Shown here: piece after piece, positions 2,997 through 57,790 of the stretch
How the letters are laid out: each line of letters opens with the position of its first letter
Position numbering within the stretch: position 1 is the stretch's first letter
IMG/VR virus record: IMGVR_UViG_3300028833_000053
Source of the DNA: a virus
Taxonomy: Duplodnaviria > Caudoviricetes
DNA: 64,000 bases
Direction: 5' to 3' (one strand)
Position numbers and translations under genes: made by a program
Notes under the pieces: model-generated
The model's input: only the letters and a program-made list of their open reading frames with translations
What the model was told of the DNA's origin: nothing
The model's database searches: none

Positions 2997-3010
2997 TATA
3001 CTGGTAAATA
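2974..3010 (+). promoter_or_regulatory. Sigma70-like promoter directly followed by the GTAAATA motif
   Basis: TTGACA(2974)-N17-TATACT(2997); GTAAATA at 3004-3010. Confidence 0.65.
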
Positions 3011-3015
3011 GAGTT

Positions 3016-3543
3016 ATGAAAATTGAAGTGTACAGCTTGAACAAGATTCTCAAGGTCGCGGACCGTGAGAAGGGGTGCAACATTCTCTCAATCAGAGATC
3101 CCTATGCAGGGGACGATGGCACGACGGACGCGAAACATGCGTGTCTTGACAGGAGAATCGCAAGGAATGGAATCAACGCCAAGATTGTCTATTTCGACGA
3201 CATAGACCCGTACCGTTTCTATCATGACATGGAGCATCCTTTCATCAAGGCGAAGTTCGTGGATGGAACGCATCAGCCCACGTTTTTCAACGCGCAGATT
3301 GCCGGCGAGATAATGCACTGGGTGATGGACTTGTGGAAGAAAGACCACAACTGCACCATCAAGATTCATTGTTGGGCGGGCCGTTCTCGGTCGCAGGCCG
3401 TTGGCTATTGGCTGAACATGTACTTTAACCTCATGTTGGAGCGCAACATTGAGGACTACATGGCGAACAACGCCGTCAACGTGACGGAGAAGATTCACTT
3501 CAATTGCGAGGTGCTGCGCGTGTTCACGTCAACTTTTGGATGA
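3016..3543 (+). CDS. Protein tyrosine/dual-specificity phosphatase-like protein
   Basis: CX5R loop IHCWAGRSRS; upstream FDD motif. Confidence 0.75.
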   Translation: MKIEVYSLNKILKVADREKGCNILSIRDPYAGDDGTTDAKHACLDRRIARNGINAKIVYFDDIDPYRFYHDMEHPFIKAKFVDGTHQPTFFNAQIAGEIMHWVMDLWKKDHNCTIKIHCWAGRSRSQAVGYWLNMYFNLMLERNIEDYMANNAVNVTEKIHFNCEVLRVFTSTFG

Positions 3544-6225
3544 CGAGCCGCTTGAGCTGGAGGACGATGAGGAACTTCCCCCGCCACCTTCCTGCCCTCC
3601 CGTTCCAAATTTCATCATGCTCTCGAAGTTTGCAAGGGACTTAACCAACTTGTCAAACTTGTTGCAGGCGCACTTCACCGGTATGCACTTCGGCTCAACG
3701 TGGTTCTCGGAAAGGGACAGGTGATTCCAAGGCTTGAGTTCCGTTATGTCAATGCCGCCTTGGCAAAGTTCAGCGGCAAGGCAAGTTTCATTTGCTTCCG
3801 ACTGTACGCTTGAACCCATGTTCATTTGGTCTTCGTTGGAATACTTGTTTGGTTGAAGTTCGTGCAAGGCAATCTCCTCATCGTACTCCTTCTTGTTCTT
3901 CATGTTGTTCACGTCGGAATAGATGCCATACGCCTCTTCAACCTTCTTGAGCAGTTTGTGGTTCTTCTCGCGCAGTTCGTTTATCTCGCATAGTTGGGCA
4001 TCGTTACAGCAGTTTCCATTCAACGATGGGTCTGCCATGACCGCTGAAATGGCAGCTTGCTTTATTCCAATTGCTTCAACCGCCGCGCACATCCACTGGC
4101 AAAGTTCCTTCACGAAAGGTCTGTAGTTCTCCGAGAGGAACGCTATGTTCTCCACCTTGTAGCACACGCAAATGGGCTTTAGCAGGTCGCAAAGGTGTCC
4201 GGGGCAGGTGAAGTGACCTATCAAGTCGCATGTGTCGAAGTTGTACGAGTCATAGCCGGTGCTTGCTGCCGTTTCACTGATAAGGGTTTGGTCAACAACA
4301 ACTGGACTCCAAGGCGAACAAGAACTCATTACAATAGCACCCATTGGGATTTGGTGGGTGTGGTCGTGTTCCGTTGTCACCGGAACTTCCTGCAAACGCC
4401 ACCAGTTGTCCGGGCAACTTATGATCCCATCCGTTCCACCGCCATGGTGTTCAACCTCTATTCTCCACAGTCTTGTCAAGAACTCCCTTTCCCAACAGTC
4501 ATACACTTCCGTCCATGCGTCCAACATGGAATCCTCAAATGCGTTTATGCTGTCAATTGCCATTTGACACCAAGTTGGAAGTTCTATTGTCGGGCCTTTT
4601 TCTCCGTACTCCCAAAGTTGGTTGAACATAGAGTCAAGAATGTTCTTTCCTTTCTTCGGCAACAGAGCCTGGTTCACCATTACGTCCATCACGCCCTGTT
4701 GGATTACGCACTTGAAGGCCGTTATGTGCTTCTTGAGTTTCTTCGGGCACATTCTTGTGTGGGTGATGGAACAGTGCCACCCTGGGTTCTCGTGGTCGCC
4801 TTTCTAGTCCTCTATGAGTTCGTTCATTATGTCCAACGCGCCATAGACCGGATTGGCAAGAGTGTCTATGTTGCACCATATCAAGGGGAACGGTCCAGGC
4901 CCGGAAGGGCATACGCATCTGCATTGCTTCATCGTGTCAAGGGACTTTTCCCTCAATTCTTGGAACAGCTTTTTCACGCAACTCAACTTGTTCGTAAGGG
5001 TGAATTTCTCAACGGCATCCTCCTTTGGCGCAATATACGTTGTACCTTCCTTCTTGTGGTTTTCCACACCCGTGTCGGTTACGCCAAGTTTCTTTCCCAT
5101 TTGGGAGTCTATTATCTTGGAAGTGAAAATCTTTTCCTTGTCTTGAGCCGCGTCTTGCTCTATCGTTTCCTTCACGTTGAGGAACTTTGAGATTGTCTGT
5201 GACACCGCGTCCTTGTTCATCAACCTGTCAATCACGCCCTCCAGCAAATCCACTTTGCGAATCATCGTCTCGATTGCGATTGGCTGCATGGGGAATTCGC
5301 AATAGGTTCCGAGTTTCATCATTTCAACCATTTCGCCCGTGAGACCGGGAACCCAATAGTCCTTGCAGTAGCGTTTGGTGCAAGAGTCCGGTCCGCGCTT
5401 GATGAACCAGTTGTTCGCCCAATCCTTCAATGCACGTCCAGTCCAAAACACGTTTGTTTGGAACGTCTCTTTGCAATCTTGGTTGGGGATGGAAAGAAGT
5501 TTGTCGTAGGAGTTGTTGTCAACCACAGTGTAGAGGTGTTCCATTCGCAGGATGTTTGCCTTGTACTGGTCAAGCGCCGCAAGCACCACGTTCTTGTCCT
5601 TTTCGTAGTGTTGCACCCAGCCTTCCGGGGCGAAGAACCTTGGATTGGTTGTTTCGGGATCGTAGATCTTCCCTTCAAGTTTTAGGAAGTCACGGCACGT
5701 CTTCTCCATCGTGATGAGATCGTCCTGTGGGGTGAACTGATCTGCAACGTTGTCGCGTTGCGTGATGGGGCAAGAGCTCTGTTTTGGAATGGCACGATAC
5801 ACGGTGAATATCTTTTTGCACATGGAGTTGACGGAATCATCAACGTCCTGCATTCCAACTTCACCAAGATCGGTGTCGGGATTTGTTCCACCCGGATATT
5901 CAGCTGCACTGTCCCCATTGGCAGAGCCGCCGCCGCAACTGCCGCCTTTTTTCTTTTGTTGTTCCTCTTCTTTGTCCTTGCCGTCTTCACCACTGCTTTC
6001 AGTCATTTGGGACAACTGGTCGAGTATGGCATCCTCTGCCTTGTCCCCTGCCCAAGAACCTACTTTTTCCCCGATATATCCTCCAACCATGCTTCCTATC
6101 GGACCGCCATATGCCGCACCAATGGATTCACCTGCCGCTTTTCCAGCTTTACCCCCTATTTGTGAACCCATCTGCCCTCTTTCAACTGGCGTGTTTTCAA
6201 TGAGATTTTCTTTCAATTCTTCCAT
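3529..6225 (-). CDS. Large Cys-rich hypothetical protein (898 aa) with an N-terminal glycine zipper; one in-frame TAG at 4804-4806
   Basis: ORFs 4804-6225 and 3529-4752 share a frame and are separated only by TAG plus 17 open codons; GTAAATA on the minus strand at 6250-6256. Confidence 0.75.
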
Positions 6226-6291
6226 CGTTAAACGTTCCTTCCATTGTGGTATTTACCATTTATCCCAAATATGGTATACTGTATATGAGCC

Positions 6292-7413: not shown

Positions 7414-7451
7414 TGGTAAATAGAGAATGACAATTGAAGGTGAGTAAAAAC

Positions 7452-8042
7452 ATGAGCAAGTATTTTGACAAACTGTTGAAGATGAACGAGAGCCTTGACA
7501 AGGAACTCAAGAACAAGGGATTGGTAAAGGAAGGAGATGATGATGCCCAGGTTCCAGTTCCTGCAGATTCATTGACGGATGACCAAAAGAAGGGCATTTT
7601 GTCCGACACGTTGAAGGACGCGGGCTTGGAAGTTGACCAGAAGGTTGTGGATGAGTTGGTCAAGAACCCAGAGGAAATGGCTGGCGTTCAGAAGATTTTG
7701 GGGGATGAGCAGAAGAACGAAAGTGCCGAAGAGTTGGGGGATATTTCCGAGGAAGTTGTGATTCGCATGGATGACGATGACCTTGACATGCACGGCTATG
7801 TTTCCACTAGGGGTGGAAAGGAACTTGTACTTACGGACAACATGGAAGAGGCGCAGAAGTTTCAACATGAAGAACTTGGTCAAAACCGGATTGAAGCCAT
7901 CTGCAACAAGTTCCATTACGATCCAAGCACGTTCAAGACGGTATCGGTTGATCCAAGGGCGGATGAGCCTTATGAAGACGACGAATCCGAGCAATGGATA
8001 AGTCTGAATCCCCTTGACCCTACTGCCACCACCATTGGATAA
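7452..8042 (+). CDS. Acidic hypothetical protein, possibly virion-associated
   Basis: Preceded by GTAAATA (7416); followed by a hairpin terminator near 8068-8094. Confidence 0.6.
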   Translation: MSKYFDKLLKMNESLDKELKNKGLVKEGDDDAQVPVPADSLTDDQKKGILSDTLKDAGLEVDQKVVDELVKNPEEMAGVQKILGDEQKNESAEELGDISEEVVIRMDDDDLDMHGYVSTRGGKELVLTDNMEEAQKFQHEELGQNRIEAICNKFHYDPSTFKTVSVDPRADEPYEDDESEQWISLNPLDPTATTIG

Positions 8043-8154
8043 ACCGTTGAGATAACAATGCAAAATTGCGGCATCCGTGAGGGTGCCGTTTTTGCTATAT
8101 ATGGAACTGTCCTCAAAAAATGGTAAATAGCAGCATAACTGAAAATGTGACATA

Positions 8155-11100
8155 ATGGCTCAACCAAGGACACAAGATAACCAAAAGGTATTTCAATCGG
8201 CGACATAGAACTTCAAGTCCTTTGTCGGTGCGGTTGACAATGTGTCGTCGTCAAAGAACATCAGTGAAATCTACGACAACATGACAAAGTTGTTTGACGT
8301 TTTCACCCAAGGTGCTTTGACGGGTCAGGGCGCAAACTCCGAGATTTTGCTGCGAACTGTCTACCGTTCCTTGTCGGATGACTTCCTGAAGATAATCCAG
8401 GACACGGACGCCGTTGAAAAGATAGTGGAACTCATAAAGAGCAAGCAGGAAAGCATAGACCCTGAGCAGGTTGACCAGGCTATGGTTTCCGAGACCACGA
8501 AGAAGGTTGTCACGAAGACGCTTGACCCATACGAGTGCGATCCAATGTCCGTGGTGTTGGATTTCGTTGACGAGCTTCAAACGGCAATTCTTCAAGTCAA
8601 GCTCAACCTCTCGCGTGAATACGAGAGGAAGAAGCTGGCTTATGCGAAATCCTATGAGGGACAACAGGAAGATCTTGACCGCCTCAATCAGGAATACACC
8701 GAGCAGGACGAGGCTATGGTGGAAGTCCTTGAACAGATGTCCGAGGACGAGGAGACTTGGAAAGAGGATTCGCTTGAGAAGTTGGAGAAGTTGCTTGAGA
8801 CGTTCAATGAGATTGGCAAGGGCAAGGATTCCAACTATGAGTTGTTGCAGGGTGTTGACAAAACCCTGTCCACCGACAAGCAGATTCAGCAATTCTTGAA
8901 GGAGAAGCCACCGAAGTTCTCTCCGAAGAAAACGCTTGATGCCATAAAGGGTGTTGGGCAGTTGAAGAGCAAGCCGGACGTCACAACCGTTGAGAGCAAG
9001 ACCCAAACCAAGACCGTTGTGAAGTCCACGCAAACGGAAATCAAGAACACGGTTGTGGTGAAGGAAAAGGCGAAGAAAGACGGAAAGAAAGTTCCATAGC
9101 CGAAGGTTCCTGAAAAACCAGTTGCGAAGGACGAGAAGAAAAAGGAAACGCCTGTAAAGGAAAAGACACCCGAAACGCCGACTCCGGTGAAGAAGGATGA
9201 GGCAAAGACGCAGACCCCACAGGTTCCGGAGAAAACTCCAGAACCCATTGGCAAGAAGGGTCCGCCACCAATCCAGCAGGAAAAGATAAAGGTTGCTCCG
9301 CCTCCACCATTGCCGGTAGTTCCACCTCAAATCGAGAAAGAAGAAAAGCCGAACGAGGATGAAAAGGCTAAAAAGCCCATTATGGAAAAACCCATAATGG
9401 AGAAGCCCATTATTCAAAAGCCGGTAATGGGAAAGCCGATAATAGAAAAGGCGGTTGACGAAAAACCCAAGGTTGAGAAACCAACTCTGGAAAAGGCAAC
9501 GAAGGAAAAGCCGACAATTGAGAAACCAAAGGTTGAACCAGTATAGGTATAGAAGCCAACCTTGGAGAAGCCAATGGTCGAGAAGCCGACGGTTGAAAAG
9601 CCCGTCGAGCAAAAGCCAATTGTTGAAAAGCCTGTAGTTGAAAAACCCAAAGAGGGAAAGACCACGGTTGAGAAGCCCAAGGTTGAAAAACCTAAAGTTG
9701 AGAAGCCAATTACAGAAAAACCCGTTGTTGCCAAGCCAATTGTTGAAAAGCCAAAGGTTGAGAAGCCGACATTTGAGAAGCCAAAGGACGAGAAGCCTGT
9801 AGTTGAGAAGCCCGTTCAACAAAAGCCGAAAGTCGAGAAGCCTCTTGTTGCGAAGCCGGTGGAGAAGAAGCCTTTGATAGGCAAGCCGTTGGTGAAGAAG
9901 CCCATTTTGGAAAAGCCGACGGAAGGGAAGCCCATTGTCCAAAAGCCATTGGTCAGGAAGCCTCTCATACAAAAGCCTGTTCTGTCAAAACCAGTTCTTG
10001 GAAAGCCGACAATGGGGAAGCCCATTTTCCAGAAGCCAATCACGCAAAAGCCCCTTCTTCAGAAGCCAATAGTTGAGAAGCCCATAAAGAAGAAGCCGTT
10101 GTTGGAAAAGCCGAAGGTTGAAAAGGCGAAGGTGGCGAAGCCGAAAATTGAAAAGGTCAAGTCAAAGGCCGCAAAAAAGGCTCCTGCCAAAATAGTCAAA
10201 AAGGCTGCAAATGCCGTTCCAAAGTCCCCAATGGGGAAAAAGACGCCCGACCCGAAATTGGCGCAAAAGAACTTTGCAAAGGAGTTGGACAAGACCTTGA
10301 ACGCCGGAAAAGTTCAAGAGCAGAAGTACACCAAGCAGTTGGATGTAATAGAGAAGTTTTTGGCAAAGGACGAGAAAGACGATAAGCAAAAGCACGCCGA
10401 GGATGCAAAGCAGCACAAAGAAGATGACATCATCTTCAAGAAGATGCAGGAGAAGGAAAAGAAGGTAAATGCTGCGAAGGACAAGGCCGAAAAAGAAAAG
10501 CGGGACGAGGAGAGGAAAAAGCAAGCCGCAAAGAAGAAGGAGGCGCCGAAGGCCGTCAAGGCGCAACCCAAACCCGCGTCGGCTCTTGGAAAGAAACCCG
10601 CTCCAGAGAAGCCAAAGGACACCAAGCTCAAGGTGAAGCCCAATGCGGGAATGTGTACGTGCCCGATATGCGGTTCGCAACACCTTCCTGGAATGCACTC
10701 ACATGGCGGGAAGAAAAAGGGTGCAATGCCAATGCCGATTCCCGTTCCAATGGGGAAGGGAAAGCAGGGCAAGTTGGCGCAACCCGCAATTCCATTGAAT
10801 CCACTTGGAGGTGACTAGTCCGAGGGTGGAATTCCACAGGACAAGATTGTGTCCACCCTTGGCACAATCCACGACAACTTGGGCAAGACGATGAACAACA
10901 AGAAGTTCAAGAACTCCTTCATGCTCAACTACAAGCCGATTCAAAAGGGCGTGAAGAAGCAACTTGACAAGGTTGGTTCGGACGAGAAAACCATCAGCCA
11001 GGACTTGGCGGAAACAGAGAAGGGCATCAAGAAGTTGAAGAACAAGAAGAAGGGCAGCTTCCTTTCGAGGTTGATGAACGGCGGCATAACCGGACTCATA

Positions 11101-14100
11101 TTCAAGGTCATAGGTGGATTGATTCTCATTGCCCTTGCAAGAATCGCGTTGAAGAAGTGGAAGGAGGCGTATATGCCTCCGACCGACGGCTCCACGATGA
11201 CCATATTCGGATTCCAGATTCCCGGATGGGACACCATAAAGGCAATTGGAATAGGCATATACAATTTCGTCACCGTGGGATTGATGAACCACTATGACAG
11301 ACTCAAGTTGTTCTTTGGAAACCTTCACAACCAACTTTTCGGCAAGAAGGGGGCAATACGAAGCATGGCGCAGGTTCGCCACATATTGCGCAGAATAGTT
11401 TGGGCGTGGATTATCGGACAGACGAAGAAGGCCGCGCGCGGCCTTTGCGACTGGCTGCTTGACATCTTGGCAGTCCCCTTGAACGCCTTGGCTCCTGGCG
11501 CGGGGCTTGTGTTGAAGTTCCTCATCAAGCTCCTCCCGGAAATATACTCGTTCATCACCACCCAGATAATGCTCTTGTGGAGCAAGAACAAGCGCGATGC
11601 GGAAGAGGCCGAAACCGCGGAAGCCGAAAGCATTGGAATGGCCGTCAATTCGGGAACAACCACGGCGATGAGCATGATAAGTTCCCAGCTCAAGGGTTTG
11701 TCCTCTGGGGTGAAGCCATTCAAGAACCAGGCGGCGAACCTACCCGGTCTTGAAACTCAAAAGGGTCCGAAAGGAAGGGGCCCGAAGAAGATGGCCATAA
11801 TGCGCCGCTTCCCAATCAAGTATTACAAGTCCTTTGACAAGGCGAAGAAGATGCAGAACAAGAAGTTTGAGTCTGACATGGAGGAGAACAAGCAGAAGGA
11901 CGAGAAGCGCATAAACGGCGGGGACGTTCTCATCAGCCAGATCGTCGAGGACACGTCAAAGATAAACCAGGCGGTTGACGAATTTACTGGAAGTATTGGA
12001 ACGTGGATCCATAGTTGGGACAATGAGAAAGTTGCGAAAATAAGGAAGTATGCCCCGAAAGAATATGAAGATGCAGACAATCGGGTGTTGGCAGATAAGT
12101 GGAAATGGGATAAAGAATTCAAATAGAAGGTAATTCATAATTACACGTCGTCGATTAGTCAGGAGATATACAAGAGAACCATAGTGGTGGAGCTGAACAA
12201 GGTTTCCGCGTACATGAACGCGCTTGGAAAGTCCTAGAGATTCAAGAACGTGAAAGGTCCGCTGTATGATCCAGTCAAAGGGTGGAATCCTGGATACAGG
12301 GTGTATGCCTCCGATTTGAAGACGGCGATTCCATTCAATCCGCTTGAAAAGATACACAGCAAGGCCGACATTCCAATTGGCGAGCCTGCGAAGGCCGAAG
12401 CCGATTCAATTGGTTGGATGCCCTTCAAGTGGATTTCCAATGGAGTTCCCGTGAACGTGCATCCTATAAACTGGGAATTGGCTAGGGCGAACGCCATATG
12501 GAACTTGTATAACTGGTTGATGAAGAACCGTTTTCAGAACAATTTGAACAATTGGAACACAACCAACATTGAAGATTTCAAGAAAGCCATTCTTCCAGAC
12601 GTGTTTGCCGACTGGAGAAGCTGGAACCAGCCTGTTGGTGATCACAGAAGCGAAGCCACATGGGGCAAGGCATATCCGCCAGAGACATATCAATATGGCG
12701 ATCAATTCGTACGGTTCATAAATGCTTTCCGCGCTGGCAAGATAGATCATGGGAACAACAATCTTGACACCGCGATGAAATTGAGAGACCCGACGTATCT
12801 TGAAAAAATGTTCGACAAGATGCACAAGAAGTTGGGCGACTATGGCACTGCGGCGGTTTCCGGCGCTGCCATAGGTGGTGCTGTCGGTGGTGCGGTTGGA
12901 GCCGTTGCTGGTGCGGCAATAGGTACCGCAGCGGTTGGTGTGTACAAGGGCGCAAAGTGGGTTGGACAGAAGATGGACGACTTGCAACGCGCTTTGTCCT
13001 ACGACCAAGATCCAGACGGAGAGGAGGAAGAATAGACGGAAGAAGTGGAGGAAGAGCAAAGCAGCGTTCCTCTCATAGGTTGGTTGATAAACGGCGTCAA
13101 GAAAGTTGTCAAGGTCATCAAGAAAATCGTCAAGAAGGTGAGCCGCAAGGTCGCAGCCCTCAACCGAATCAAGGAATGGCGCGGCAAGACCTATTTTGGG
13201 GTTAACTATGGTGACATCCGCGATTTCATGATTGACACTGGCGTTTTGCAGTTGTTCAGTCAGGGATAGATCATCAAGCCAGTCCAAAAGACGATTCCTC
13301 TTCTGGACAAGCTCATTGACATGAAGGTGATAGGGAAGGGGTCAAGCGTGGAGGATGGCAACTCGATGCATTCTCTCATGGAGGCTTTCTTCGCATACAA
13401 CCGCATTGAGGGATATGACTGGAAGAAAATGCAAAATGACGAGAGGGCGCAGGCTGCTTTCGCCCAGTCCCTTTTGGAATATCTCGCCTTGAAGGTCATT
13501 CCTCAGTGGAACATAGTTGAAAAGCTCCTTTCAAACGACGTTACGAAGAAAACCGACGAAACCAAAAAGGCGATGGATGAAGGTGTGCAGGTTCTTGCAA
13601 ACTTGCTTTCATTCAAGGGCATAATGGAACACCTTTCAAAGCATCTCCGATTCCCCAACATGAAGGTCAAGGTCATAGACTTCTCCAATGCAAGGGACGA
13701 TCACGACAGGGAGTTGCTTGAACAGTTCAGAAAAGACCAGGGAATTCCCAACAGCGATGAAAAGAACCAAATACTTGCACAGTGGCAAGGCGTTTGGTCG
13801 AAGATTCCAAGCATGAACGATGAGGAGCTTCAAGGCAGCTTGGATAACTTGAAGAAACTCATTGGGGTTGCGGCATTTGAAGCGAAGTACACCGGAGAGT
13901 TCACTTACGAGAAGCAGTTGCGCAAGTTCTACACCGCCATGATAAAGGAGAAGGACGAGCGTTTGAAAGCACAGGCCGCAGGTGACAAGATTGTTCAGAA
14001 GCCGGGTGGGATAGAGCGCGTCATGGAAGGTCCGCCGCCGAAGACCATGTTGGAAATGGAGGAAGAACGCAAGGCAAAGGAAGCCGAGGAAGCAAGAAAA

Positions 14101-14598
14101 GCGGCGGAAGAAGAAGAGAAGCGCAAAGCCGAAGAGGAAAAGAGGCTGCAAGAGGAGGCGAAACGCCAAGAGGAATTGAAAATTGCCCAGGCGAAGATTG
14201 CCGCCATGGAAGCCATCAAGAAGCAGGAGCAGAACTACGAGAACATCTTGGAGAAGATGGTGCAAGACCCATCAACGGTGACTGATGAGGAATTGAAGTC
14301 ACTTGGTGAAGACGTGAAGAACTTGAAGCAGGAAGCAGAAAACAGGATTGCACAACTGCCAAGAGAGGAAAGGGAAATGAAGCTGGCGTTGATTCGCGGC
14401 GACAAGCTTTCTGAAAAGACCTTCGCCGAGTTGAAGGAAACCGCAGTGGGGTTGAGTGGAAGTCTACAAGCCTACATCTAGGAAGTGAACCAAATTCCAG
14501 TTGGCTCTATAATGGCAATATAGGAAACGCCAGGAACGCCAACAGAAAGCAAGATATAGTTGCAAGACTCCGACAATGTGGATATGGGCGACGAATAA
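8155..14598 (+). CDS. Giant 2147-aa protein with KPxxE pentapeptide repeats, hydrophobic segments and coiled coils; 12 in-frame TAGs; possible tape-measure or ejection-type virion protein
   Basis: Seven listed ORFs (8242, 9187, 9562, 10849, 12250, 13045, 13321) lie in one frame. The only breaks are TAG at 8206, 9097, 9544, 9550, 10816, 12124, 12235, 13033, 13267, 14479, 14521 and 14557. ATG at 8155, TAA at 14596. Confidence 0.85.
9370..10160 (+). repeat. Degenerate 15-nt (5-aa) tandem repeat encoding KP-x-x-(E/Q/G/K)
   Basis: KPIME KPIME KPIIQ KPVMG KPIIE ... KPKVE KPTFE ... KPLIQ KPVLS, roughly 50 units. Confidence 0.9.
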
Positions 14599-14629
14599 AA
14601 AGACTTGGTTGGATAAGCCAAGTCTTTTT
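14598..14629 (+). terminator. Intrinsic terminator next to a TATAAT element upstream of the tRNA
   Basis: AAAAGACTTGG-loop-CCAAGTCTTTTT; TATAAT at 14632. Confidence 0.75.
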
Positions 14630-14654
14630 AGTATAATTGAATGTGACGATTTAA

Positions 14655-14685: not shown

Positions 14686-14691
14686 ATTGAA

Positions 14692-14781
14692 TGAGCAGTG
14701 GTGTACGGCTTGCACAGACGGTCTCTAAAACCGTGGCTTCTGAAGCGAACGGACTGGGTTCGACTCCCAGCTGCTCAACCA
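14692..14781 (+). tRNA. Amber suppressor tRNA, anticodon CUA, probably Gln-accepting, with a long variable arm
   Basis: Acceptor TGAGCAG/CTGCTCA plus A-CCA; D-stem GTGT/GCAC; anticodon arm ACGGT-CTCTAAA-ACCGT (CTA at 14725-14727); T-arm CTGGG-TTCGACT-CCCAG. Confidence 0.9.
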
Positions 14782-14795
14782 ATTTGGAGACTGAC

Positions 14796-15337: not shown

Positions 15338-15406
15338 ATGAGACGTGTGTTTGTAATAAGAAAGGATTTGCATCTGAAGCCCGGCAAGATGGGCGCGATG
15401 GATTGA
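15338..15406 (+). pseudogene. Truncated original 5' end of the peptidyl-tRNA hydrolase gene
   Basis: MRRVFVIRKDLHLKPGKMGAMD* versus MRRVIIIRKDLHLKAGKLAAM at 16665. Confidence 0.8.
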
Positions 15407-15554
15407 TTTTGTAGTAAAAACTACACAGGACAGATTGACTCTAATCAATTTTGGCTAGGTTTGCATAACGCCTAGCCATTACTGTTTTAGACTAAAATGG
15501 TAAATACTTATAAACTTGTTAGAGCAAGGTTATAAAAATAAAGGTAATTAAGTT

Positions 15555-16655
15555 ATGCATCGTTATACTCAAGAAGAATTATAGTCTATATTTTAGGACT
15601 AGAAATTGGGTGAGGAAATAATTCCTCATATTAAAAACAATAAGATAGATATTGTTTTGTGGAATCAACGATATAAGCAACAATGGAAATAGATTTAGAG
15701 ACAGATGAAGAAGGGTTTATTGTGTCCGGTTTGTGGCACAATACTATTTAAGTTTTATGAGAAACATTTAGCACAGCATAATCTTACTGTAAAATAGTTA
15801 TATGATTAGGTATATGGTATAACTGAATCACCCAAATGCCCTGTGTGTGGAGAAGCAACAGAGTTTGTTAAGAACAAATGGTTTTATCGTAAATTTTGTT
15901 GTAATGCTCATTAGTGCAGAATTATAAATGAGACTGACGGATTGAGGAACGGATGGACTATTGAAGATATTAGAAATCATAATTCCATGATAATAGAACG
16001 TGGAAGAAAAGTATGCGATATAGTCAATAAAAAATATGGAAGTCAGTTTTCAATAAAATTAACTGATGAATAGCGTCTTAATAGAGGGTTAATAAATGAT
16101 GATGACTATTAGGAGTGGCAGACATAGTAGAAGTTAAAAAAATCAGAAGCCGGAAAACTTGGAGGGAAAAAATATTCTTCGTTATATGGATATAAATTAT
16201 TGAAGACATGGGGTTACAAAACGAAAATATTTTTGACTGAAAATAAATGGTTCATGCTTGAATCTTAGTAGGAATTGTTTCATTTATTGAAACGTGTATT
16301 TATCGACGGAGATAAGATTGAAACTATGAGTAATGCAATATTTTTAGAGAATACGACTAATTTATTTTCTGGAACAAGTGCTTTTACGGATTTGGTTATA
16401 GATAATAATGGAATAAAAACAAATTATGAAGTTCATTGTATAGATGATGAAGACACTATAAAAAGAAAACGATATTGTTCTGAATTAAATGGATATGAAT
16501 TTGTATTGGAAGATATTACTTTATACACATATCCGAATGGAAAATACATTGACCAATTAAGATAGTTTATAAATGTAGATGAAATTTATGAAAAGTTGAA
16601 ATATGAAAATAAATGTGGTAATGTATTTGTATTGAACTTATATGATTATGTATAA
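15555..16655 (+). CDS. Putative free-standing homing endonuclease (zinc fingers plus PD-(D/E)xK-like C-terminus), 366 aa, 15 in-frame TAGs
   Basis: Read codon by codon, with no TAA/TGA from ATG 15555 to TAA 16653. CPVCG twice, YRKFCC, ES(Q)(Q)E...FTDLVI...YEVH. AT-rich; GTAAATA at 15500. Confidence 0.7.
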
Positions 16656-16664
16656 TTATTCAAT

Positions 16665-17243
16665 ATGAGAAGGGTTATCATAATACGTAAAGATTTACAC
16701 CTCAAAGCTGGTAAATTAGCTGCTATGTGTATGCACTGTGCAGAGGCATATTGGACTAACTTGATGAAGTCATCCGTTGTCATTGACAACGAGTTCATGA
16801 CTTTGCCCGCATGGGAGAACTATGGAAATGGAAAAGTGGGACCGGCCCTCTACAAGCACCCAGGACTTTACAAGTTGTCTGAAGAGGCTTACAACCGTGG
16901 GGAGAAGTCCTTCACCACAACGAGGGAAAACGCCCGTAAGTCCGTGACGGTCACGATGGAGATTCCAAAGGACATTTGGGAAGGGTATGTAAACGACATC
17001 TTCACAAAGACAATTTGCGAAGCACGCAACTTGAACAACTTGAAAACGAAGATTGAGCCGGTTGTGCAGGAACTTGGATTGGTTGAGGGGATTGATTGGG
17101 GCTACATCAACGATTGCTGCAAGACGGACTTGACGCCCGAGAACGAGGATGGCACTTGCACGATTGGTGCGTGGTTCAAGCCATTGCCTGACGAAGACGC
17201 ATTCAAGATTAGCAAGAAGTTCAAGCTTTACAGGGATGATTGA
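16665..17243 (+). CDS. pth2: Peptidyl-tRNA hydrolase, PTH2 family
   Basis: VIIIRKDL-LKAGKLAAMCMH N-terminal motif; FTKTIC; I-D...TDL...GTCTIGAWFKP; C-terminal KFKLY. Confidence 0.8.
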   Translation: MRRVIIIRKDLHLKAGKLAAMCMHCAEAYWTNLMKSSVVIDNEFMTLPAWENYGNGKVGPALYKHPGLYKLSEEAYNRGEKSFTTTRENARKSVTVTMEIPKDIWEGYVNDIFTKTICEARNLNNLKTKIEPVVQELGLVEGIDWGYINDCCKTDLTPENEDGTCTIGAWFKPLPDEDAFKISKKFKLYRDD

Positions 17244-18244: not shown

Positions 18245-18363
18245 ACTACATTCAGATTCCGAAAATGAATCACCGTGATTGGTTGAAGTGGGGATTGGGG
18301 CTGAAGAAATTGTAAATATTTTTTCAGTTGCTTGGAGGATATTGTGAAATGCGCATTGGAATC

Positions 18364-22769: not shown

Positions 22770-22798
22770 TTGACATCCGAACCAAGGTTTGATATACT
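22770..22798 (+). promoter_or_regulatory. Sigma70-like promoter
   Basis: TTGACA-N17-TATACT, TG extended. Confidence 0.75.
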
Positions 22799-32611: not shown

Positions 32612-32773
32612 AATAAATTCAGTTTAGCTTTGATTTTTACATTTTTTGGCGTAAATATTATCTATAACTGAACGGACTTTACACATACGACCAAAAAGTT
32701 GTATAATACAGGATATGTTCAAGGCGATGGGGAGTTCCCATCAACTAAACAAACAAAGAAGAGGAAAAAGAAA

Positions 32774-41165: not shown

Positions 41166-41429
41166 GTTACTGAAGGGTACTTGACATCGGGTACCTTTTT
41201 GTGGTATACTGTATGCGTATGGAGAAAAAAGCAGATACAAGTCTTGATGTTTTTGACGTGGTGGGCATTGTGCTTGTCACCCTCAAGATAATTGGCGTTG
41301 AGCCTGTGGTCGGTTGGTCATGGTGGCTTGTTCTTGCGCCGTGGTGGATTTACATTGGTGCGCTTGCCGTCATGGCGTTGCTTGCGTCATGTGTGAAGTC
41401 CGACAACAAAGAAAAGGAAGAAAACTGAA

Positions 41430-43568: not shown

Positions 43569-43597
43569 TTGACAAACAGAAAGAATTATGATATACT
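43569..43597 (+). promoter_or_regulatory. Sigma70-like promoter
   Basis: TTGACA-N17-TATACT. Confidence 0.75.
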
Positions 43598-44716: not shown

Positions 44717-44738
44717 AAACAAATAATATGGTATTTGA

Positions 44739-44769: not shown

Positions 44770-44861
44770 TTTGTATAATTGTAAATAGTAAAGAACGAGG
44801 TTGGATGAAACTCGGAATCTCAACCAACCTCTAACCACAAACAATAATCGAGGTATTGAAT

Positions 44862-45998
44862 ATGGCTAATAAAAATTATACTCATTTCACAGGATAGGAA
44901 TTACTGGATGCGGTAGACTGCATATTTGCAAACACAAATAGAAGACTTCCAGCTACAATAAAGAAATACAATCCTGACTTGCTTTTAGAAATTGAACGCA
45001 GAACACAGTTTCTTAATGCGTTCTATGAGCAACGAAAAAGCAATGTTCCAATTGGTGCAAGACTATTTTGCATTGAACACAATTTGAATTCACAACCAAT
45101 ATGTCAAAACCAAAATTGTCCAAATCATAGTCCAGTTGAATGGAGACATGCAACACAATCGTTTGCTCCACATTGTTCTTGCAGTTGCGCTCAATCAGAC
45201 CCACAAGTTAAAAATCAAATAGAAAAAACCAATGTAGCAAAATATGGCAGTAAAAATGTATTTCAATCTGAAGTGATAAAGAATCGGATACTGAATACTA
45301 TGCGAAACAAATATAATGTGGATAATCCTTCTCAATCTTCAGAAATACAAAAGAAGAAAATTGAAACCTTTATCAAACATTACAACACAACACATCCATT
45401 AAAATGTAAATCAATAAAAGATAAGGTACGAGCAACAAACGAGGAACGTTATGGTGGTCCGGCTCCCATGTGTGATAAAAGTGTTCAGAGAAAAATGGAG
45501 AAAACATGTGAATTTCGCTATGGTGGTATAGGATTTGCATCAGAAGAATTGGCGAAAAAGTCTATTGAGACAACAGTAAAGATATATGGTAAAACACCAA
45601 TTGAATTGGGGCATGAAGCGGCGAAAATAATATCTAAGTCGAAATCCGAAATTGAACTTGACAACTATGTATCTACTATTTGCAATTGTGAAATTGAATT
45701 TAATTGTCGCACAATACTTAAGAATGACCGAGAACTTGACATCTACATTCCATCAAAGAATCTGGCTATTGAATTCAATGGCGACTATTGGCATATGAAT
45801 CCACGATTATATGACGAGAGTTATTACAATTCACAGTCTCAATGTACGGCAAAGGAGAAGTGGGAATATGATAAACTGAAACAGGAAGAATGCCAATCTC
45901 TCGGAATCAAGTTGATTGTTGTATGGGAATATGACTGGATTCATTCTCGAACTGATGTTGAAAACATGCTGCGTACTGAATTTACAAAATCCAGATAA
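44862..45998 (+). CDS. Putative homing endonuclease (Vsr/DUF559-like PD-(D/E)xK C-terminus, KYG repeats); TAG at codon 12
   Basis: ATG 44862 after GAGG RBS, TAG 44895; ELDIYIPSKNLAIEFNGDYWH...GIKLIVVWEYDW; AT-rich; GTAAATA at 44781. Confidence 0.8.
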
Positions 45999-48022: not shown

Positions 48023-48036
48023 TGGTAAATATCCGT

Positions 48037-48324: not shown

Positions 48325-48694
48325 CAAGGACATTCGGAAAGACGCGGAAAAACTTTCTAAACTCATAGGTTTGACTGTTGTTTCCAAGGAAGAGTGCTGG
48401 GACGAGACGCGCAAGATGTTTCGTAAGTTCTATTCTATCAAGGGGATTTCGTGCGTGGAACTTGAAATAGAGCCAAGGCCGCACATATATCTGAAGTTCA
48501 CGGATGGAACTGGACGTATCATATGCTCATTGGGGGAGTTTGAGAAATACACCGCGAAAATAGACGAATACGGTTCCATTCTTGAATACCTTACATGTGT
48601 GGGCTTTTCCACGCTTGACCTTTGATTTCTTCCCTTAAATTGTAAATATTACCAATGAAAGAACACATCCAGATTTTTCAGGGGTAATATCGCA

Positions 48695-49663
48695 ATGGAA
48701 GAAGATTTGACATCAAAGACAATTGGCTATGTGGTTCCGCCTTACGTGCAACCACCTCCACCGCCACCTCCTCCACTACCGCCGCTACCACCTCCGCCAC
48801 CACCGGCTTTCGTATAGGGGTGGATAACGTACATCAACTCGTACATGGACATACGTCTGAAGCAGATGTATGACAAAATAGCGCGTGGTTATTTCATAAT
48901 CGACGAGGCGAGCTTTGACCAGATGAGGGTCAATGACATCATTCTTGGCGGCAAGAGCCTGCGGGCAATAATACAGAAGTTGCTTGGTATGCAGCCGTTG
49001 CCACCACCTCCGGCACCTCCGCCACCTGCCCCAATACCTGTTCCTGTGCCACCTCCACCAGTTCCGGTGCCATATCTTCCAATTGCACCGGTGCCGCCAC
49101 CTCCATATGCTGCATATCCTTATGCACCACCTCCGGGGATGGATATTGATGGCTTGATTGCGTATTTCAACCAGTACGTTCAGGACGTTGGAAAGAAAAT
49201 TTACGAAAAGCTGAAGAGCTACGAAAAGACCCCACATACGCATATCTGGTTGAAGGACAGGTCAACGGCGCACATCCACGAGCTTATTGTTGAGAATGGC
49301 GTTATCAAGACCAATGACCTTGGTGAGATTAATTGCGATGATGATTGCACTTGCACTGATTGCGATTGCTCTTGCAGGCACAAGGAGCGTGACGACGTTG
49401 CGTTCAACCGTCTCTTGATGACCGACAGGTTGACAAAGAACGTATACGAGATATTCGTGGACAACGGTGTTCTTATGACAAACTTGTTCAGGGGAGATTA
49501 GGAAGATTCTTCTGGAAGTGGATTGATTGATTCTACGGATGGAAACATAATAGATTCAATTGACGATCAACAGCCTTGCTCGCATCGTCCTCATCCACCA
49601 CCGTATCCTCCTTTCCCTCCGCCTCCTCCACCGCACCCACATCATCACCATCATAAACAGTGA
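48695..49663 (+). CDS. Polyproline-rich protein (322 aa), two in-frame TAGs
   Basis: ATG 48695; TAG at 48815 and 49499; TGA at 49661; three poly-Pro tracts and a His-rich end. Confidence 0.75.
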
Positions 49664-49674
49664 GGTGAAACACA

Positions 49675-51114
49675 ATGGAAGGATATACTGACACAAGGGT
49701 ATTCGGCTATTATGGACAGCCTTATGCGTACATTCCCGTACCGTAGCCACCGGTGCCACCACCTGTGGCTCCGCCTCCCCCTCCTCCCCCGCCGCCGCCA
49801 CCGCCTCCATACATATATCCATATGCGCCGCCGCCCGAGGTGAAGCAGCACGAAGAACCAGATCCACCAATAGGAAGTGTGCCTTTGTTTTCGTTCTCCG
49901 TCATTTCGGATGTGCATTTGAACGATGAGACGGATGAATCGGGTTGCGATGACTTGAAGCATTTGTTCTACTTGCTTGGGCAAAGGAATTATCTTGACGA
50001 TTTCAACCTCAAGTACATTTGCTGTTGCGGTGACATTGGAAACAACGAAGACCACGAGTTTCCAACGTTTCAACGCATTGTGAAAAAACACTGCCCGATA
50101 GAGTCCGACAAGGTGTTTTCTTGTGCAGGCAATTACGATTAGGAATTGACCGCGGCACAATGGAAAGAGCAAATGTACGATGCAAGTTTGCATGAGAAAG
50201 TCACGTCCGACAAGAACTTCTCGTTTACGGAAGACAATTTCGTGTTCGCGTTCATGTCTTTGGCTACGCAAGAGGACACTTTGTCCGACGTTCCTGAAAG
50301 GAAATGCTATTTGGATGACGTGAACACGCATACAAGGGAATGGTTGACGGAAGTTGTTGAAAGCGCAAAGGGCAAGACCTTGTTTCTGTTCATGCACTAT
50401 CCTCTTGTCAACCGTCAGTGTGCGGACACCACCCAAGTTGATGTTCCCGTGTATGATTGGACAAGTGGAAGGTTTGACAGCCAAAGAATGAACGTTGCTT
50501 CAACTGCGGTTCCCTATGCGGGTTCCTTGGATCGTTGGTCTCTCCAAGAAGTGCCATTGCATTTTGGCTATGGCTTCCACACGCCTGTTGGAATTCAAGA
50601 CTACAGCATAAAGTCTGAATCAGAGTAGATAATTGAAATTTTGGACAGGCACGAAGAAGGAAAGACTTTCGTGTTCAGTGGACATTCTCATCTTGTGTTC
50701 CAAACGGAAAAGTACGATTACTTCAGTGCAACGGGGTATCCAAACTTCAACGTTGCTGCAATACCCGACACCAACATCGTTACGATACACGTTCCGGCGT
50801 TGAATCACCCAAGAATGTTGGCTGTAACCGATCCCGGAAACATAGCTGGATGGGATACGGTATCACCAGCTTCCCCCTATCGTCAACCTAGCCAGTCTTG
50901 GATAGTGACGGTATATGATGACAAGCTTGTTTTGAATGGGTTTGAATCCAATCTTAACCACGACAAGAAGTATGGGGATTTGCTGACTGACTACACCTAT
51001 ACCTTGAACTTGAATGATTATGTCACGCGGGATGAATAGCCCGGCGACGATGATGAAGGTGGTCATGGTGGAGATTCAGAAGTTGAACACTGGATTAGGA
51101 CACCCAAGAAGTGA
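49675..51114 (+). CDS. Metallophosphoesterase with an N-terminal polyproline tract (479 aa), four in-frame TAGs
   Basis: Motifs SDVH, CGDI, GNYD, MHYP and SGHSH fall in three standard-code fragments; TAGs at 49744, 50140, 50626 and 51037. Confidence 0.85.
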
Positions 51115-51159
51115 AAATAAAACAACCTTCCCAATCACGGGAAGGTTTGTTCATTTCTG

Positions 51160-51360
51160 TCATTTCAATTTCCAATCATCCCAGATGTAGGTTGAACTGT
51201 CTTGAAACCATTGGACGTTTATATTGATGTTGGTGCTTTGTGAAATCTGAACCACGTTTGTTTTCGTGTGGTTGGGTTCGGGCGTTGGTTCATCAGTTGG
51301 CAAGCAGGAAATCCCGCTAAACATCAAGACAATTGACGTGACAAGTATTTTCCAGTTCAT
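51160..51360 (-). CDS. Small exported, lipoprotein-like protein
   Basis: MNWKILVTSIVLMFSGISC; minus-strand GTAAATA at 51390-51396. Confidence 0.5.
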   Translation of the reverse strand: MNWKILVTSIVLMFSGISCLPTDEPTPEPNHTKTNVVQISQSTNININVQWFQDSSTYIWDDWKLK

Positions 51361-51463
51361 GTTGTGTGTTCCTCGTTGCGTGTGTATGTTATTTACCATT
51401 TGGTTTTTTGTTTGGAACATGGTAAATAATAGCAAATTGGGAATACAATGACGGTGCGAGGAT

Positions 51464-51760
51464 ATGGCAAAGTTCACTAAAAGAGAATCAGAAGAGGAAG
51501 AGGACGAGAAGGCAAAATCCCTTCGTTGCTTTGAGAATCAGCCAAACATCAACATGGTGATTCCCTGGCTTTACGAGATTAGCAAGTCCATGTCAAGTTC
51601 AAGAGACAGTGATGATGATGACGACAAGGCAAAGTCCTTGAAGTGCTTTGAAAACCAACCGAACATCAACATGGTGATTCCGTGGGTGTATCAAATATAC
51701 AAGTCCGTGAAATCTGGTGGTGGCTCAGGTGGAGAGACGATAGAATGGGATGAGGATTAA
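51464..51760 (+). CDS. Small protein made of two ~40-aa internal repeats
   Basis: KAKSL(R/K)CFENQPNINMVIPW(L/V)YxIxKS twice. Confidence 0.75.
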   Translation: MAKFTKRESEEEEDEKAKSLRCFENQPNINMVIPWLYEISKSMSSSRDSDDDDDKAKSLKCFENQPNINMVIPWVYQIYKSVKSGGGSGGETIEWDED

Positions 51761-51764
51761 GAAT

Positions 51765-52154
51765 ATGGGAACAAAAGTCACGTTCAAGATAGTTTCTTCG
51801 GGAAATCCATTTGTTTTTTCTACCAAGAAAAACGATTTGGTTCCTGATTATAAGGATGGTCAGATAATTTTCGTGGAAGATTAGTGCAAGATATACCTTG
51901 ACTTCCACGATGAGCGCAAGTGCTATACCCCAGACGTTCCTGTTTCATCCGGTGGATTGCGTTATCTGGGTATATTTGACGATGGATTTGATCAAGATGA
52001 TGAAACTACATGGAAAATTGGTGGAGACAGTGTTTCACCCAATGAAAATGACATGGCAGTTTATGGCAACAAGGAGTTCATGTACCGCAAGGGCGAGGAT
52101 GGGAAGTTTGGTTGGTTTGAAATCGGTGACGAAGACGCTCCTGTGTGGAATTGA
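51765..52154 (+). CDS. Putative tail-fibre-associated small protein; one in-frame TAG
   Basis: ATG 51765; DGQIIFVED(TAG)CKIYLDF; continues into ORF 51957. Confidence 0.65.
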
Positions 52155-52271
52155 TTGTGGTTTTTGGGGGATTTATTGTAAATATGACACAGGATTGAAT
52201 TTTCCCGTTAGACTGTGTGTCTTATGGGATTTGCAAATCAAATAACACACAAACAAAGAGGTAAAAGAATA

Positions 52272-53534
52272 ATGGCACAACAAATTAAATTCTATGCTAC
52301 AACTTCTGCGTCCTATGATGCTCTTGTGGCTAGTGAATCAGTGAATGGTGCTGGCATATATTTCGTCGAAGGGGGCGAACTCTACAAGGGAACTTCACGT
52401 TTCGGTCTTGGACGAGTTACACTTGCCAGTTCCACCGCGGGGGTTGTAAACCCAGCTCGTGGTGATATTGTTGTCACTGGCTCCGGCGCTGGTTGGGTCT
52501 TTGACGGAACCAATTGGCAGAGCATTGGCGGTGACATTGGCACAATCACAAGTGCTTGGCAGTCTGACATTTCCGCAGCGGTTGAGGCTCTCGTTTCAAC
52601 CTTCACAACCGGTGACGCAGAGGGTCAGGTGAAGCTTGGTGATACCAATGCAACCGTCAATGGATGGTCTGATTTGGTTGGCAGCGTTTCTACAAATGCG
52701 ACAACTATTGCAAGTGTTTCTGAAAGGGTTACAGCCATTGAGAACATCGTGGATGCTTCTACCAACACGGTGACGGCAACTACGGGTTCCTTCTCCAACT
52801 TGAGCGTAGATTCTGCAACGTTCAATGCAACCACGGTTTCCGCTGGAACGCTTACTGTTGGTGGAAGCGACATCAGTGACCTGATTTCCGCTGGTGCAGA
52901 TGCAAGGATTTCTGCTGCCAAGTTGAGTGGTACTATTTCCACTTCTGACGGCGCGGGCCTTGTCAATGAAGGACAGGTTGTGAATTATGTTTCCGCCCAG
53001 CTTCAGAGTTTTGACAACGCGATGCACTTCAAGGGAGCTGGTACGTCCCTTCCTGCAAGCGCGGAGGCAGGTGACGTATATGTATTCACTGCCAACGCAA
53101 CAGACGAGTCTGGCTACAAGGCTGGACAAGAAGTTGTTTACACGGGTTCCGCCTGGGAAGTCATTGGCGACCAGAACACCTATGCAGTCGCGGCAACAGT
53201 TGACGCTTCTTGGTCAACCCTTGGAACTGCTGCGTTTGTAAACACGGCTGACACGGTTACGGCAGATGCCACCACGCTTCCTACATGCAGCGCAGTTGCG
53301 TCTTATGTTTCAAGCGAAATCGCTTCTGCAATCGGAGCCCTCGCAGGTTCTTCAAGTGACTCCGATAAGGGCGTTGCAGTTGAGGTTGTCACAGCCGACG
53401 GTGAGGTTTCTACCGTTGACGTGACGGTAACTCTTGACACCACGCTCAGTGCAAACGATAACAACGCTCCAACCACAAAGGCAGTCTACGATGCCCTTTG
53501 CTGGCTTGACGCTTCTGGTTCTGTCATCAGCTAA
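52272..53534 (+). CDS. Putative fibre or structural protein, Ala/Ser/Thr/Gly-rich
   Basis: GIYFVEGGELYKG; AMHFKG...GDVY...WEVIGD modules typical of phage fibres; GTAAATA at 52178. Confidence 0.6.
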   Translation: MAQQIKFYATTSASYDALVASESVNGAGIYFVEGGELYKGTSRFGLGRVTLASSTAGVVNPARGDIVVTGSGAGWVFDGTNWQSIGGDIGTITSAWQSDISAAVEALVSTFTTGDAEGQVKLGDTNATVNGWSDLVGSVSTNATTIASVSERVTAIENIVDASTNTVTATTGSFSNLSVDSATFNATTVSAGTLTVGGSDISDLISAGADARISAAKLSGTISTSDGAGLVNEGQVVNYVSAQLQSFDNAMHFKGAGTSLPASAEAGDVYVFTANATDESGYKAGQEVVYTGSAWEVIGDQNTYAVAATVDASWSTLGTAAFVNTADTVTADATTLPTCSAVASYVSSEIASAIGALAGSSSDSDKGVAVEVVTADGEVSTVDVTVTLDTTLSANDNNAPTTKAVYDALCWLDASGSVIS

Positions 53535-53648
53535 TGAAACGACAAAGAGATAGCAATATCTCTCTTCACACAATGGTGTTCGGGGATTTCTCCGAACATC
53601 ATTTGTTTTTAGTATAATTGTCATAGTATATAAAGCAAAGGAAAATCC

Positions 53649-54701: not shown

Positions 54702-55023
54702 AATACATATCGTAGCGTGGAAAGTGAAGATGGGAATGTGAGTTTCCCATCTTTATTTTTATTTCAATTTGTGGTATAATGTATCTGGACTATATTGAAA
54801 GGACATATGCAATGAGCAATTCGACAAAAGTTTCCGTGGGTGGAACAAGTTTCACGAACCTTCTTTTCCTGGTTTTTCTTGTGTTGAAACTGACGAAGGT
54901 TATTGACTGGAGTTGGTGGTGGGTGACCGCTCCGCTTTGGATTCCATTCAGCCTGATTCTGGTTTTTCTGATTTTGGTTGCTATTGCTTCATCTTCTTCA
55001 GGAAGAAGATGGTAAATACCATC

Positions 55024-57139: not shown

Positions 57140-57210
57140 CCCAAATATGCTTGTGCCTTTATTTGTCTTTTTTGGTAAATAATGTATATTAGGCGAATGA
57201 GACACATAGA

Positions 57211-57759
57211 ATGGGCAATTTCTATATAAAAACATTGAATGTAACTGGAAACAGGCTGTTTTCCAATGAGAAAAATCCATTGGACATTCCTCCGTTGCCA
57301 GAGCCAGAGAAGGTTTAGATTCCTGAAGCCAAACCATAGAGGTTGTCTATCGTATGGTGGAGGCATCCAAAGGACGAGCCGAAGGATTGGAAGGAACTGA
57401 AAAGCATTCCACCACCGCCCTGGGCGCCGCCGCCACCACCTCCTCCCATTCCTCCACCTACACCGGCTCCGACTCCTCCGCCAAAACCACCTACACCATA
57501 TAGTCCATATTCCGACCCGGATACGGACAAGCCTGGTGTCATTCCATACATAAGGCCGATCAAGGGTGTTTTGCAGCGTGGCACTATTCATTGTGTTTGG
57601 ATTAAGGGCAAGAAGCCACCACCCCCTCCACCTCCGCCAATTCCACCACCACCATTCCCGGTTCCCCCTCCTCCGCCAGGACAATCCATTCCTTTGGTGA
57701 ATCCAATGCAGCAATGGGGACAATATATGTACTAGGCGTTTCCAAATCAACCACGTTGA
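57211..57759 (+). CDS. Polyproline-rich protein (182 aa), three in-frame TAGs
   Basis: ATG 57211; TAG at 57316, 57337 and 57733; TGA at 57757; GTAAATA at 57175. Confidence 0.7.
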
Positions 57760-57790
57760 TTTGTGTAAATACTTGAAAGGAATCTGAACA

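Follow-up and report, generated by a model that had tools for sequence, protein, structure and literature searches.

The stretch analysed here, called the window throughout, comprises 64,000 nucleotides (nt) of the virus record IMGVR_UViG_3300028833_000053 and corresponds to the minus strand of G000:361268-425267, where G000 denotes a phage record of 433,895 bp that is complete and has direct terminal repeats. It carries a recurrent element, GTAAATA, which a first-pass annotation of the same DNA had picked out by eye and proposed to be a variant of the phage T4 late promoter, tied to genes with in-frame TAG codons. The window contains exactly 16 copies, compared with a mean of 3.84 and a maximum of 9 in shuffled sequence; every coordinate and strand given in that annotation proved exact, and none had been missed. 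According to the gene calls, 15 of the 16 boxes are intergenic and the sixteenth (55012) stands 5 nt ahead of a better start, ATG 55024. All of them point, in the correct orientation as claimed, to a downstream start codon at a spacing of 5 to ~110 nt, or ~150 nt in the case of 32651, and the nine boxes at 6250(-), 8123, 15500, 44781, 48642, 51422, 55012, 57175 and 57765 indeed head genes or operons with in-frame TAG. The boxes and what lies behind them are as follows:

3004-3010, plus strand: GTAAATA box, 5 nt before ATG 3016 of a 175-residue gene with no TAG; directly after an E1 promoter (2974-3002; class described below)
6250-6256, minus strand: GTAAATA box before an 898-residue gene, 3529-6225(-), with one TAG and a weak tape-measure/tail-lysin PHROG match
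7416-7422, plus strand: GTAAATA box heading 7452-8042 (196 residues, no TAG)
8123-8129, plus strand: GTAAATA box heading a proline-rich-repeat gene, 8155 or 8242 to 14598 (2118-2147 residues, 11-12 TAGs)
15500-15506, plus strand: GTAAATA box heading a 366-residue open reading frame (ORF), 15555-16655, with 15 TAGs
18312-18318, plus strand: GTAAATA box, 30 nt before ATG 18349 (212 residues, GGAGG ribosome-binding site, no TAG)
32651-32657, plus strand: GTAAATA box, ~150 nt before 32807-33487 (no TAG), with a GTATAAT box at 32701-32707 in between
44781-44787, plus strand: GTAAATA box fused to a GTATAAT box (GTATAATTGTAAATAG), heading an HNH homing-endonuclease gene, 44856-45998, with one TAG
48025-48031, plus strand: GTAAATA box, 5 nt before ATG 48037 (95 residues, no TAG)
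48642-48648, plus strand: GTAAATA box heading 48695-49663 (two TAGs) and 49675-51114 (four TAGs)
51390-51396, minus strand: GTAAATA box, half of a back-to-back pair with 51422, heading 51160-51360(-) (66 residues, no TAG)
51422-51428, plus strand: GTAAATA box, other half of the pair, heading 51464-51760 (no TAG) and 51765-52154 (one TAG)
52178-52184, plus strand: GTAAATA box heading 52272-53534 (420 residues, no TAG)
55012-55018, plus strand: GTAAATA box, 5 nt before ATG 55024 (214-residue C92-type amidase, one TAG)
57175-57181, plus strand: GTAAATA box heading 57211-57759 (182 residues, three TAGs)
57765-57771, plus strand: GTAAATA box heading 57791-58438 (phosphoesterase, two TAGs)

The bias of the element toward intergenic DNA holds across the whole genome, with 113 of its 128 copies located in the 13.7% of G000 that is intergenic, nearly all of them facing a start codon a few to ~100 nt away, and GTAAATA is the top intergenic-enriched 7-mer of the genome (binomial p ~7e-82). 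The logo of the 113 intergenic sites reads AAT[G/T]GTAAATA, its information being confined to -6 to +6 and a weak A/T patch at -17 to -14, and it lacks a -35 element; the flank described earlier as usually (T/TG)GTAAATA is borne out, since 89 of these copies have T at -2 and 99 have G or T at -1. One-mismatch variants are rare in the genome, the T4-type TATAAATA occurring only 4 times, and about 18 back-to-back pairs in divergent intergenic regions can be read off the site list. Two complete genomes were used for comparison, G001 (414 kb) and G002 (418 kb), with a median protein identity to G000 of 62-65%. The orthologues of box-headed genes of G000 also lie directly behind a box in 85% (G002) and 80% (G001) of cases, against a background of 21-25%, and the box flanks fall to 20-45% identity in these relatives except for the box-adjacent bases and the A/T patch at -16/-15. 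In three short contigs with a terminase 30-32% identical, the standard code is used and TATAAATA takes the place of GTAAATA; there are hints that the G variant of the late box is specific to the GTAAATA lineage. No relevant description of GTAAATA as a phage promoter came out of a full-text literature search.

At 3004, 48025 and 55012, exactly 5 nt separate the box from ATG and there is no ribosome-binding site; these boxes would give leaderless late messenger RNAs (mRNAs) if the T4 rule holds that transcription starts ~6 nt past the box. GTAAATA-N5-ATG was considered as a sign of leaderless mRNAs and set aside: the N5 peak is modest genome-wide and moves to N8 or N4 in the relatives.

Genes were called with a simple coding-potential caller of our own, with TAG as a sense codon, yielding 497 genes for G000 and 249 in-frame TAGs spread over 100 of them; ARAGORN detects 36 transfer RNAs (tRNAs). 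A comparison of genetic codes by longest ORF proved misleading, the longest ORFs with TGA as sense being an off-frame artefact, and reliance was therefore placed on the coding-potential caller together with tRNA and alignments. Filling the gaps with long ORFs of negative coding score produced mostly spurious genes, which were excluded from the statistics. Orthologues of T4 proteins found by phmmer include (i) virion and packaging proteins, namely gp23, gp20, gp17, gp18 (two copies), gp21, gp13, gp15, gp4 and gp25, and (ii) gp43, gp41, gp61, gp44, gp46/47, uvsX, uvsW, dda, gp39, nrdG and gp55; by this protein homology, G000 is therefore a distant relative of T4. Since PHROGs and Pfam give no function for most of the motif-headed genes of the window, lateness was established through T4 orthologues genome-wide and not from the window alone.

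Three sequence-defined promoter classes can be distinguished. Class E1, with ~25 copies genome-wide, is a near-identical long element in which a GC-rich stretch precedes TTGACW-N14-TGnTATACT and a conserved transcribed leader, GTAGGTGTTCTGAG, follows; these promoters head runs of small genes with no known function and a sigma-70-family gene (983-1747 of the window). Class M is represented by GTATAATTG, with at most a weak TTTAC at -35, its GTATAATT core having ~51 intergenic copies, and class L is the GTAAATA box. The promoter class agrees for almost all orthologue pairs across the relatives. Besides the boxes listed above, the window contains the following elements of these classes and the genes that bear on them:

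927-955, 2974-3002, 22770-22798, 34554-34582, 41181-41210 and 43569-43597: E1-type promoters, of the TTGACA-N17-TATACT type
927-955, plus strand: the first of these E1 promoters, TTGACT-N17-TATACT with TG extension, heading the sigma-factor gene 983-1747
983-1747, plus strand: sigma-70-family factor with regions 2 and 4, no TAG, behind an E1 promoter
14600-14640, plus strand: terminator hairpin followed by AGTATAATTG, the M-class promoter of the suppressor tRNA, with its -10 at 14632-14637
14692-14781, plus strand: 90-nt tRNA with anticodon CUA, whose extra arm is long, whose first pair is U1-A72 and whose CCA end is encoded
61346-62461, plus strand: second sigma-70-family factor, region 2 detected, no TAG, behind TTTACA-N17-GTATAAT

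The main evidence for the lateness of the L class comes from the T4 orthologues: all ten late-gene orthologues (gp4, 13, 15, 17, 18 in two copies, 20, 21, 23 and 25) belong to L units, and 10 of the 12 early/middle orthologues of replication type belong to M units, the exceptions being nrdG, directly behind GTAAATA, and gp39, which has all three boxes. Because of this partition, and in agreement with the variant late promoter first proposed, GTAAATA is very probably a -10-only late-gene promoter of the T4 late type, in a genome that also encodes a gp55 homologue.

In the relatives, the codons opposite the TAGs of G000 are mainly CAG, CAA or TAG, followed by glutamate, lysine and aspartate codons, and one TAG of gp55 aligns with a glutamine of T4 gp55; on account of these two alignments, TAG is read as glutamine. 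Insertion of tyrosine, serine or leucine, suggested by the long extra arm of the tRNA, was ruled out, the TAGs not being aligned with codons for those residues. The sole tRNA of G000 with a CUA anticodon is that at 14692-14781, preceded by the terminator and AGTATAATTG; G002 is arranged alike, and in G001 the corresponding place, also behind GTATAATTG, is taken by a CUA stem-loop RNA of non-canonical form, so that the tRNA(CUA) lies behind GTATAATTG in all three genomes. An Rfam scan of the window returned no family at the gathering score, tRNA included. The long extra arm gives the window tRNA the type II shape of serine, leucine or tyrosine tRNAs, and its U1-A72 pair is like that of bacterial glutamine tRNA. 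The syntenic spot is occupied by three quite different CUA RNAs (window 14692-14781; G001 ~297,880-298,000; G002 268,611-268,687), that of G001 having no canonical T-loop and not being called by ARAGORN. For a release factor, PF00472 gave no match in the genome. Phage release factor 2 occurs in some Lak and Agate phages and is not universal.

The use of TAG follows the promoter class. Per 1000 codons, the E1, M and L classes contain, respectively, 1.20, 0.81 and 3.12 TAGs in G000, 0.27, 0.56 and 3.94 in G001, and 0.26, 0.78 and 3.23 in G002, and the first genes behind E1 promoters hold only 0, 1 and 0 TAGs in the three genomes. The association between TAG and the L class, which the first-pass annotation had put forward for a genome-wide test, is strong both in a permutation test over transcription units (p <= 5e-5) and in a logistic model that includes gene length (odds ratio ~6, z = 6.2). 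When only interior codons of conserved genes, those with orthologues in both relatives, are considered, the rate ratio for L reaches 7.5 (Fisher p 2e-9), 153 of 182 interior TAGs lying behind GTAAATA, which heads 56% of the codons. Off-frame TAG differs only 1.3-fold between the classes, and composition is therefore not the explanation. Within the window, once starts are curated, the 16 boxes stand ahead of 42 of the 45 sense TAGs. On these counts, the three promoter classes predict which genes are recoded and which are not.

The earlier picture of long, almost TAG-free gene runs behind TTGACA-N17-TATACT promoters needs a correction: six such promoters do exist in the window, but most of the long TAG-free run stands behind GTATAAT(TG), a class not then separated. 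Among the TAG-bearing exceptions named at the time, 511-855 (one TAG) and thyX at 38561-39604 (two TAGs) hold, and the one at 32213 does not, being called as a shorter TAG-free gene (32489-32611). The rare in-frame TAGs of E and M genes cluster at both gene ends in all three genomes, and 11 of the 48 TAGs in E and M genes of G000 lie within 10 codons of the called stop. Some of these end TAGs may be real stops or errors in start calling, so the true contrast with L is probably larger; in some early genes, TAG may still serve as the functional stop, and their products would then be extended by a short tail when suppression sets in.

The order of the two switches is suggested by the gene for the gp55 homologue, located outside the window at G000:174288-174932 and matching T4 gp55 in phmmer (E 1.9e-7) as well as PDB 7d7c_F (E 1.8e-5) and phrog_234 (E 2.5e-21). 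It contains three TAGs, and its own promoter, GTATAATTG, lies ~85-95 nt upstream in G000, with the same type, GTATAAT(T), in six of six genomes. In all six, gp55 has one to three TAGs within codons 24-33, the exact codons partly differing. The code switch is probably upstream of the transcription switch, because the tRNA(CUA) and gp55 are both behind M promoters and gp55 itself carries TAGs. No sigma factor with amber codons in a recoded phage emerged from a literature search. In the gp55 leader, ~25 nt past the -10 of the gp55 promoter, an opposite-strand GTAAATA is present in six of six genomes (G000:174933-175060; L071-L075 ~9,900-10,000), pointing back through the gp55 promoter with no gene ahead for 2.6 kb; this antisense box may act in the late phase by interference with gp55 transcription.

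Taken together, we consider it likely that GTAAATA is a late promoter in a three-tiered programme, that TAG is tolerated in the genes of the L tier, and that the code switch gates the transcription switch in series. The box would most likely be read by the host RNA polymerase with the phage gp55-type late sigma. In this model, (i) the E1 tier, with its strong sigma-70 consensus, would express the small early genes and one phage sigma factor; (ii) the M tier (GTATAATTG) would express the replication genes, the single suppressor tRNA(CUA) and the gp55 gene; and (iii) the L tier (GTAAATA) would express virion and packaging genes and many genes with no known function. TAG would be a minor, fast-changing glutamine codon, scarcely present in E1 and M genes yet frequent in L genes, likely because translation of only the latter follows the accumulation of the suppressor tRNA, TAG being purged from the former and tolerated in the latter. 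The code switch would then gate the transcription switch in series and not as a second, parallel lock.

Several points weigh against this model. The gene calls come from our own simple caller, and G001 and G002 are relatives of G000, not independent replicates. The T4 early-type orthologue nrdG sits directly behind GTAAATA, and the association of TAG with the box is not absolute, 29 of the 182 interior TAGs lying outside GTAAATA units. A phmmer search with T4 gp33 (minus its first 11 residues) gave no match even at E 10, and PF02916, PF09116 and phmmer gave none for the gp45 clamp, so that the T4 activation mechanism may not apply. Two further sigma-70-family factors are encoded, either of which could in principle read GTAAATA. 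Finally, we infer the start sites, the timing, the readers of the promoters and the selection on the gp55 TAGs from the DNA itself. With regard to the missing partners, gp33 is small and fast-evolving, and a gp44 clamp-loader homologue is encoded in G000, which makes a divergent clamp likely.

An extension of the model, which we put forward tentatively and hold to be rather less probable than its absence, is that the change of genetic code serves as a timer of late transcription. M promoters would produce the suppressor tRNA and the gp55 mRNA, the latter untranslatable past codons 24-33 until the tRNA builds up, and the antisense box in the leader would then allow the late holoenzyme to interfere with the gp55 promoter or turn it off, giving an amber-gated sigma cascade with feedback.

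The closest rival, somewhat unlikely in our judgement, is that TAG is a pure by-product that drifts in wherever translation follows the suppressor tRNA, with no regulatory role, the TAGs of gp55 included. It accords with the fast turnover of the codon, only 18-22% of TAGs at retained glutamine sites being still TAG in a relative, with the position of TAG at slightly less conserved glutamine sites (37-40% of TAG sites stay glutamine-type vs 46-56% of CAG/CAA sites), and with the location of the gp55 TAGs in a glutamine/arginine-rich low-complexity stretch with shifting codons. On the other hand, gp55 is an outlier among non-late genes, accounting for three of the eight interior TAGs of 127 conserved E/M genes where ~0.06 would be expected at the class rate, and at least one TAG is kept within its codons 24-33 in six of six genomes even though the codon differs.

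More improbable is that each late gene has two independently selected locks, a late promoter and an in-frame TAG that blocks protein from leaky transcription, as the first-pass annotation had suggested. Its first half stands, in that late promoter and TAG are strongly associated: in each of three genomes, TAG density is 3-8 times higher in genes behind the box. In late genes genome-wide, a sense TAG is followed by A in 0.41-0.51 of cases vs 0.32-0.34 after CAG/CAA, with C depleted. An A after an amber codon favours read-through, according to classic amber-context work, which suggests codons tuned for reading; there is also a slight excess of TAG in the first fifth of late genes, which may come partly from over-long start calls. 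The independence of the locks is not supported: gp55, behind GTATAATTG, itself carries TAGs and needs the suppressor, which places the locks in series. Furthermore, TAG is absent from ~52% of the genes in late units, among them those for the major capsid, the prohead protease, gp13 and the larger of the sheath paralogues, and capsid and sheath, the most abundant virion proteins, have 0-1 TAG. Since about half of the late genes are TAG-free and only ~20% of TAGs are kept in relatives, most late-gene TAGs look tolerated and not selected as locks.

A slightly poorer prospect still is that GTAAATA is read by one of the sigma-70-family factors of the window (983-1747 or 61346-62461), or is not a promoter at all, for instance a processing or binding site. 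The two sigma genes are genuine, and the gp33 and gp45 partners of gp55 were not found by the searches described above. However, both factors have a region 2 that most resembles that of primary and RpoS-type sigmas, readers of TATAAT-type -10 boxes, and would fit such boxes better than GTAAATA, region 4 in one of them calls for a -35 box that the motif lacks, and the box is one base off the T4 late promoter in a genome that encodes a gp55 homologue; the two factors are candidate readers of the GTATAATTG class. As to the box not being a promoter, its strand orientation, its place before starts and the back-to-back pairs at divergent units all fit a promoter. Very improbable, lastly, is that base composition, gene length or gene calling has produced the association as an artefact. 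Late genes are indeed longer (mean 396 vs 169 codons), off-frame TAG is 1.3 times commoner in them and the caller is home-made, yet the per-codon ratio is 3.4-8.6, the effect survives adjustment for length, it becomes larger on restriction to conserved genes and interior codons, and it is repeated in two other complete genomes.

In T4, late transcription depends on the late sigma gp55 with gp33 and the gp45 clamp (PMC2988020, PMC1524935), and the late promoter is TATAAATA at -13 to -6, with the variant CTAAATA in Aeh1 (Nolan et al., PMC1524935). The system described here resembles it in the single, short, A/T-rich -10-type box, with no -35, before T4 late-gene orthologues, in the identical TAAATA core and in the gp55 homologue. 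It differs in that (i) the base before TAAATA is G, instead of A in T4 and C in Aeh1; (ii) the T4 form TATAAATA is limited to the 4 copies noted above; (iii) homologues of gp33 and gp45 were undetected; and (iv) the sigma gene contains stop codons that need read-through.

A bias of recoding to late, structural and lysis genes has been described in gut phages (Lak, crAss-like and other clades), with the proposal that recoding times late and lysis genes and that the code-change genes are expressed first (Borges et al., bioRxiv 10.1101/2021.08.26.457843); the words promoter and sigma factor have 0 occurrences each in that text. G000 shares with those phages TAG read as glutamine, an own suppressor tRNA, a code-change gene outside the recoded set and recoded codons in late genes, and it fits their model of an early standard-code phase followed by a recoded late phase. 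Unlike them, the TAG classes here map onto three sequence-defined promoter classes and the late sigma gene is itself recoded; a release factor was not found. Block-wise dual coding is described in crAss-like phages (Mgcod, bioRxiv 10.1101/2022.06.29.495998), which likewise have parts of the genome compatible with the standard code and others that need the reassigned code, whereas here the two sets are interleaved and defined by the promoter of each unit, not by contiguous blocks. The late-gene bias of recoding is thus already published, and variants of the T4 late promoter are known; the link to promoters is an increment. The published idea of recoding as a timer is based on gene function alone, to which the promoter classes add a sequence-defined prediction, and the definite order of a code-changing tRNA and a programme-changing sigma makes a general hypothesis specifically testable. 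As an aid to the annotation of this uncultured rumen/gut megaphage clade, GTAAATA marks late units, and the genes behind it need calling with code 15.

Some further features of the window touch on individual boxes. The fused double box GTATAATTGTAAATAG has four copies, at window 44773-44787 and, in window orientation, at 107,673, 134,487(-) and 190,364(-), the three beyond the window having no confident gene call in the stretches after them. The late protein encoded at 8155-14598, with 2147 residues and 12 TAGs, matches Pfam Extensin_1 and HC2 at residues 436-662; this proline-rich protein of 2118-2147 residues has no phage family match and no match among GenBank phages. Finally, a 1.3-kb AT-rich segment (15401-16739) that is missing in G002 contains the box at 15500 and the 366-residue ORF 15555-16655, which has two CPVCG zinc-knuckle motifs and no family match; its 15 TAGs correspond to ~13 times the density of late genes, and it has probably arrived as a mobile gene from a source in which recoding is heavier.

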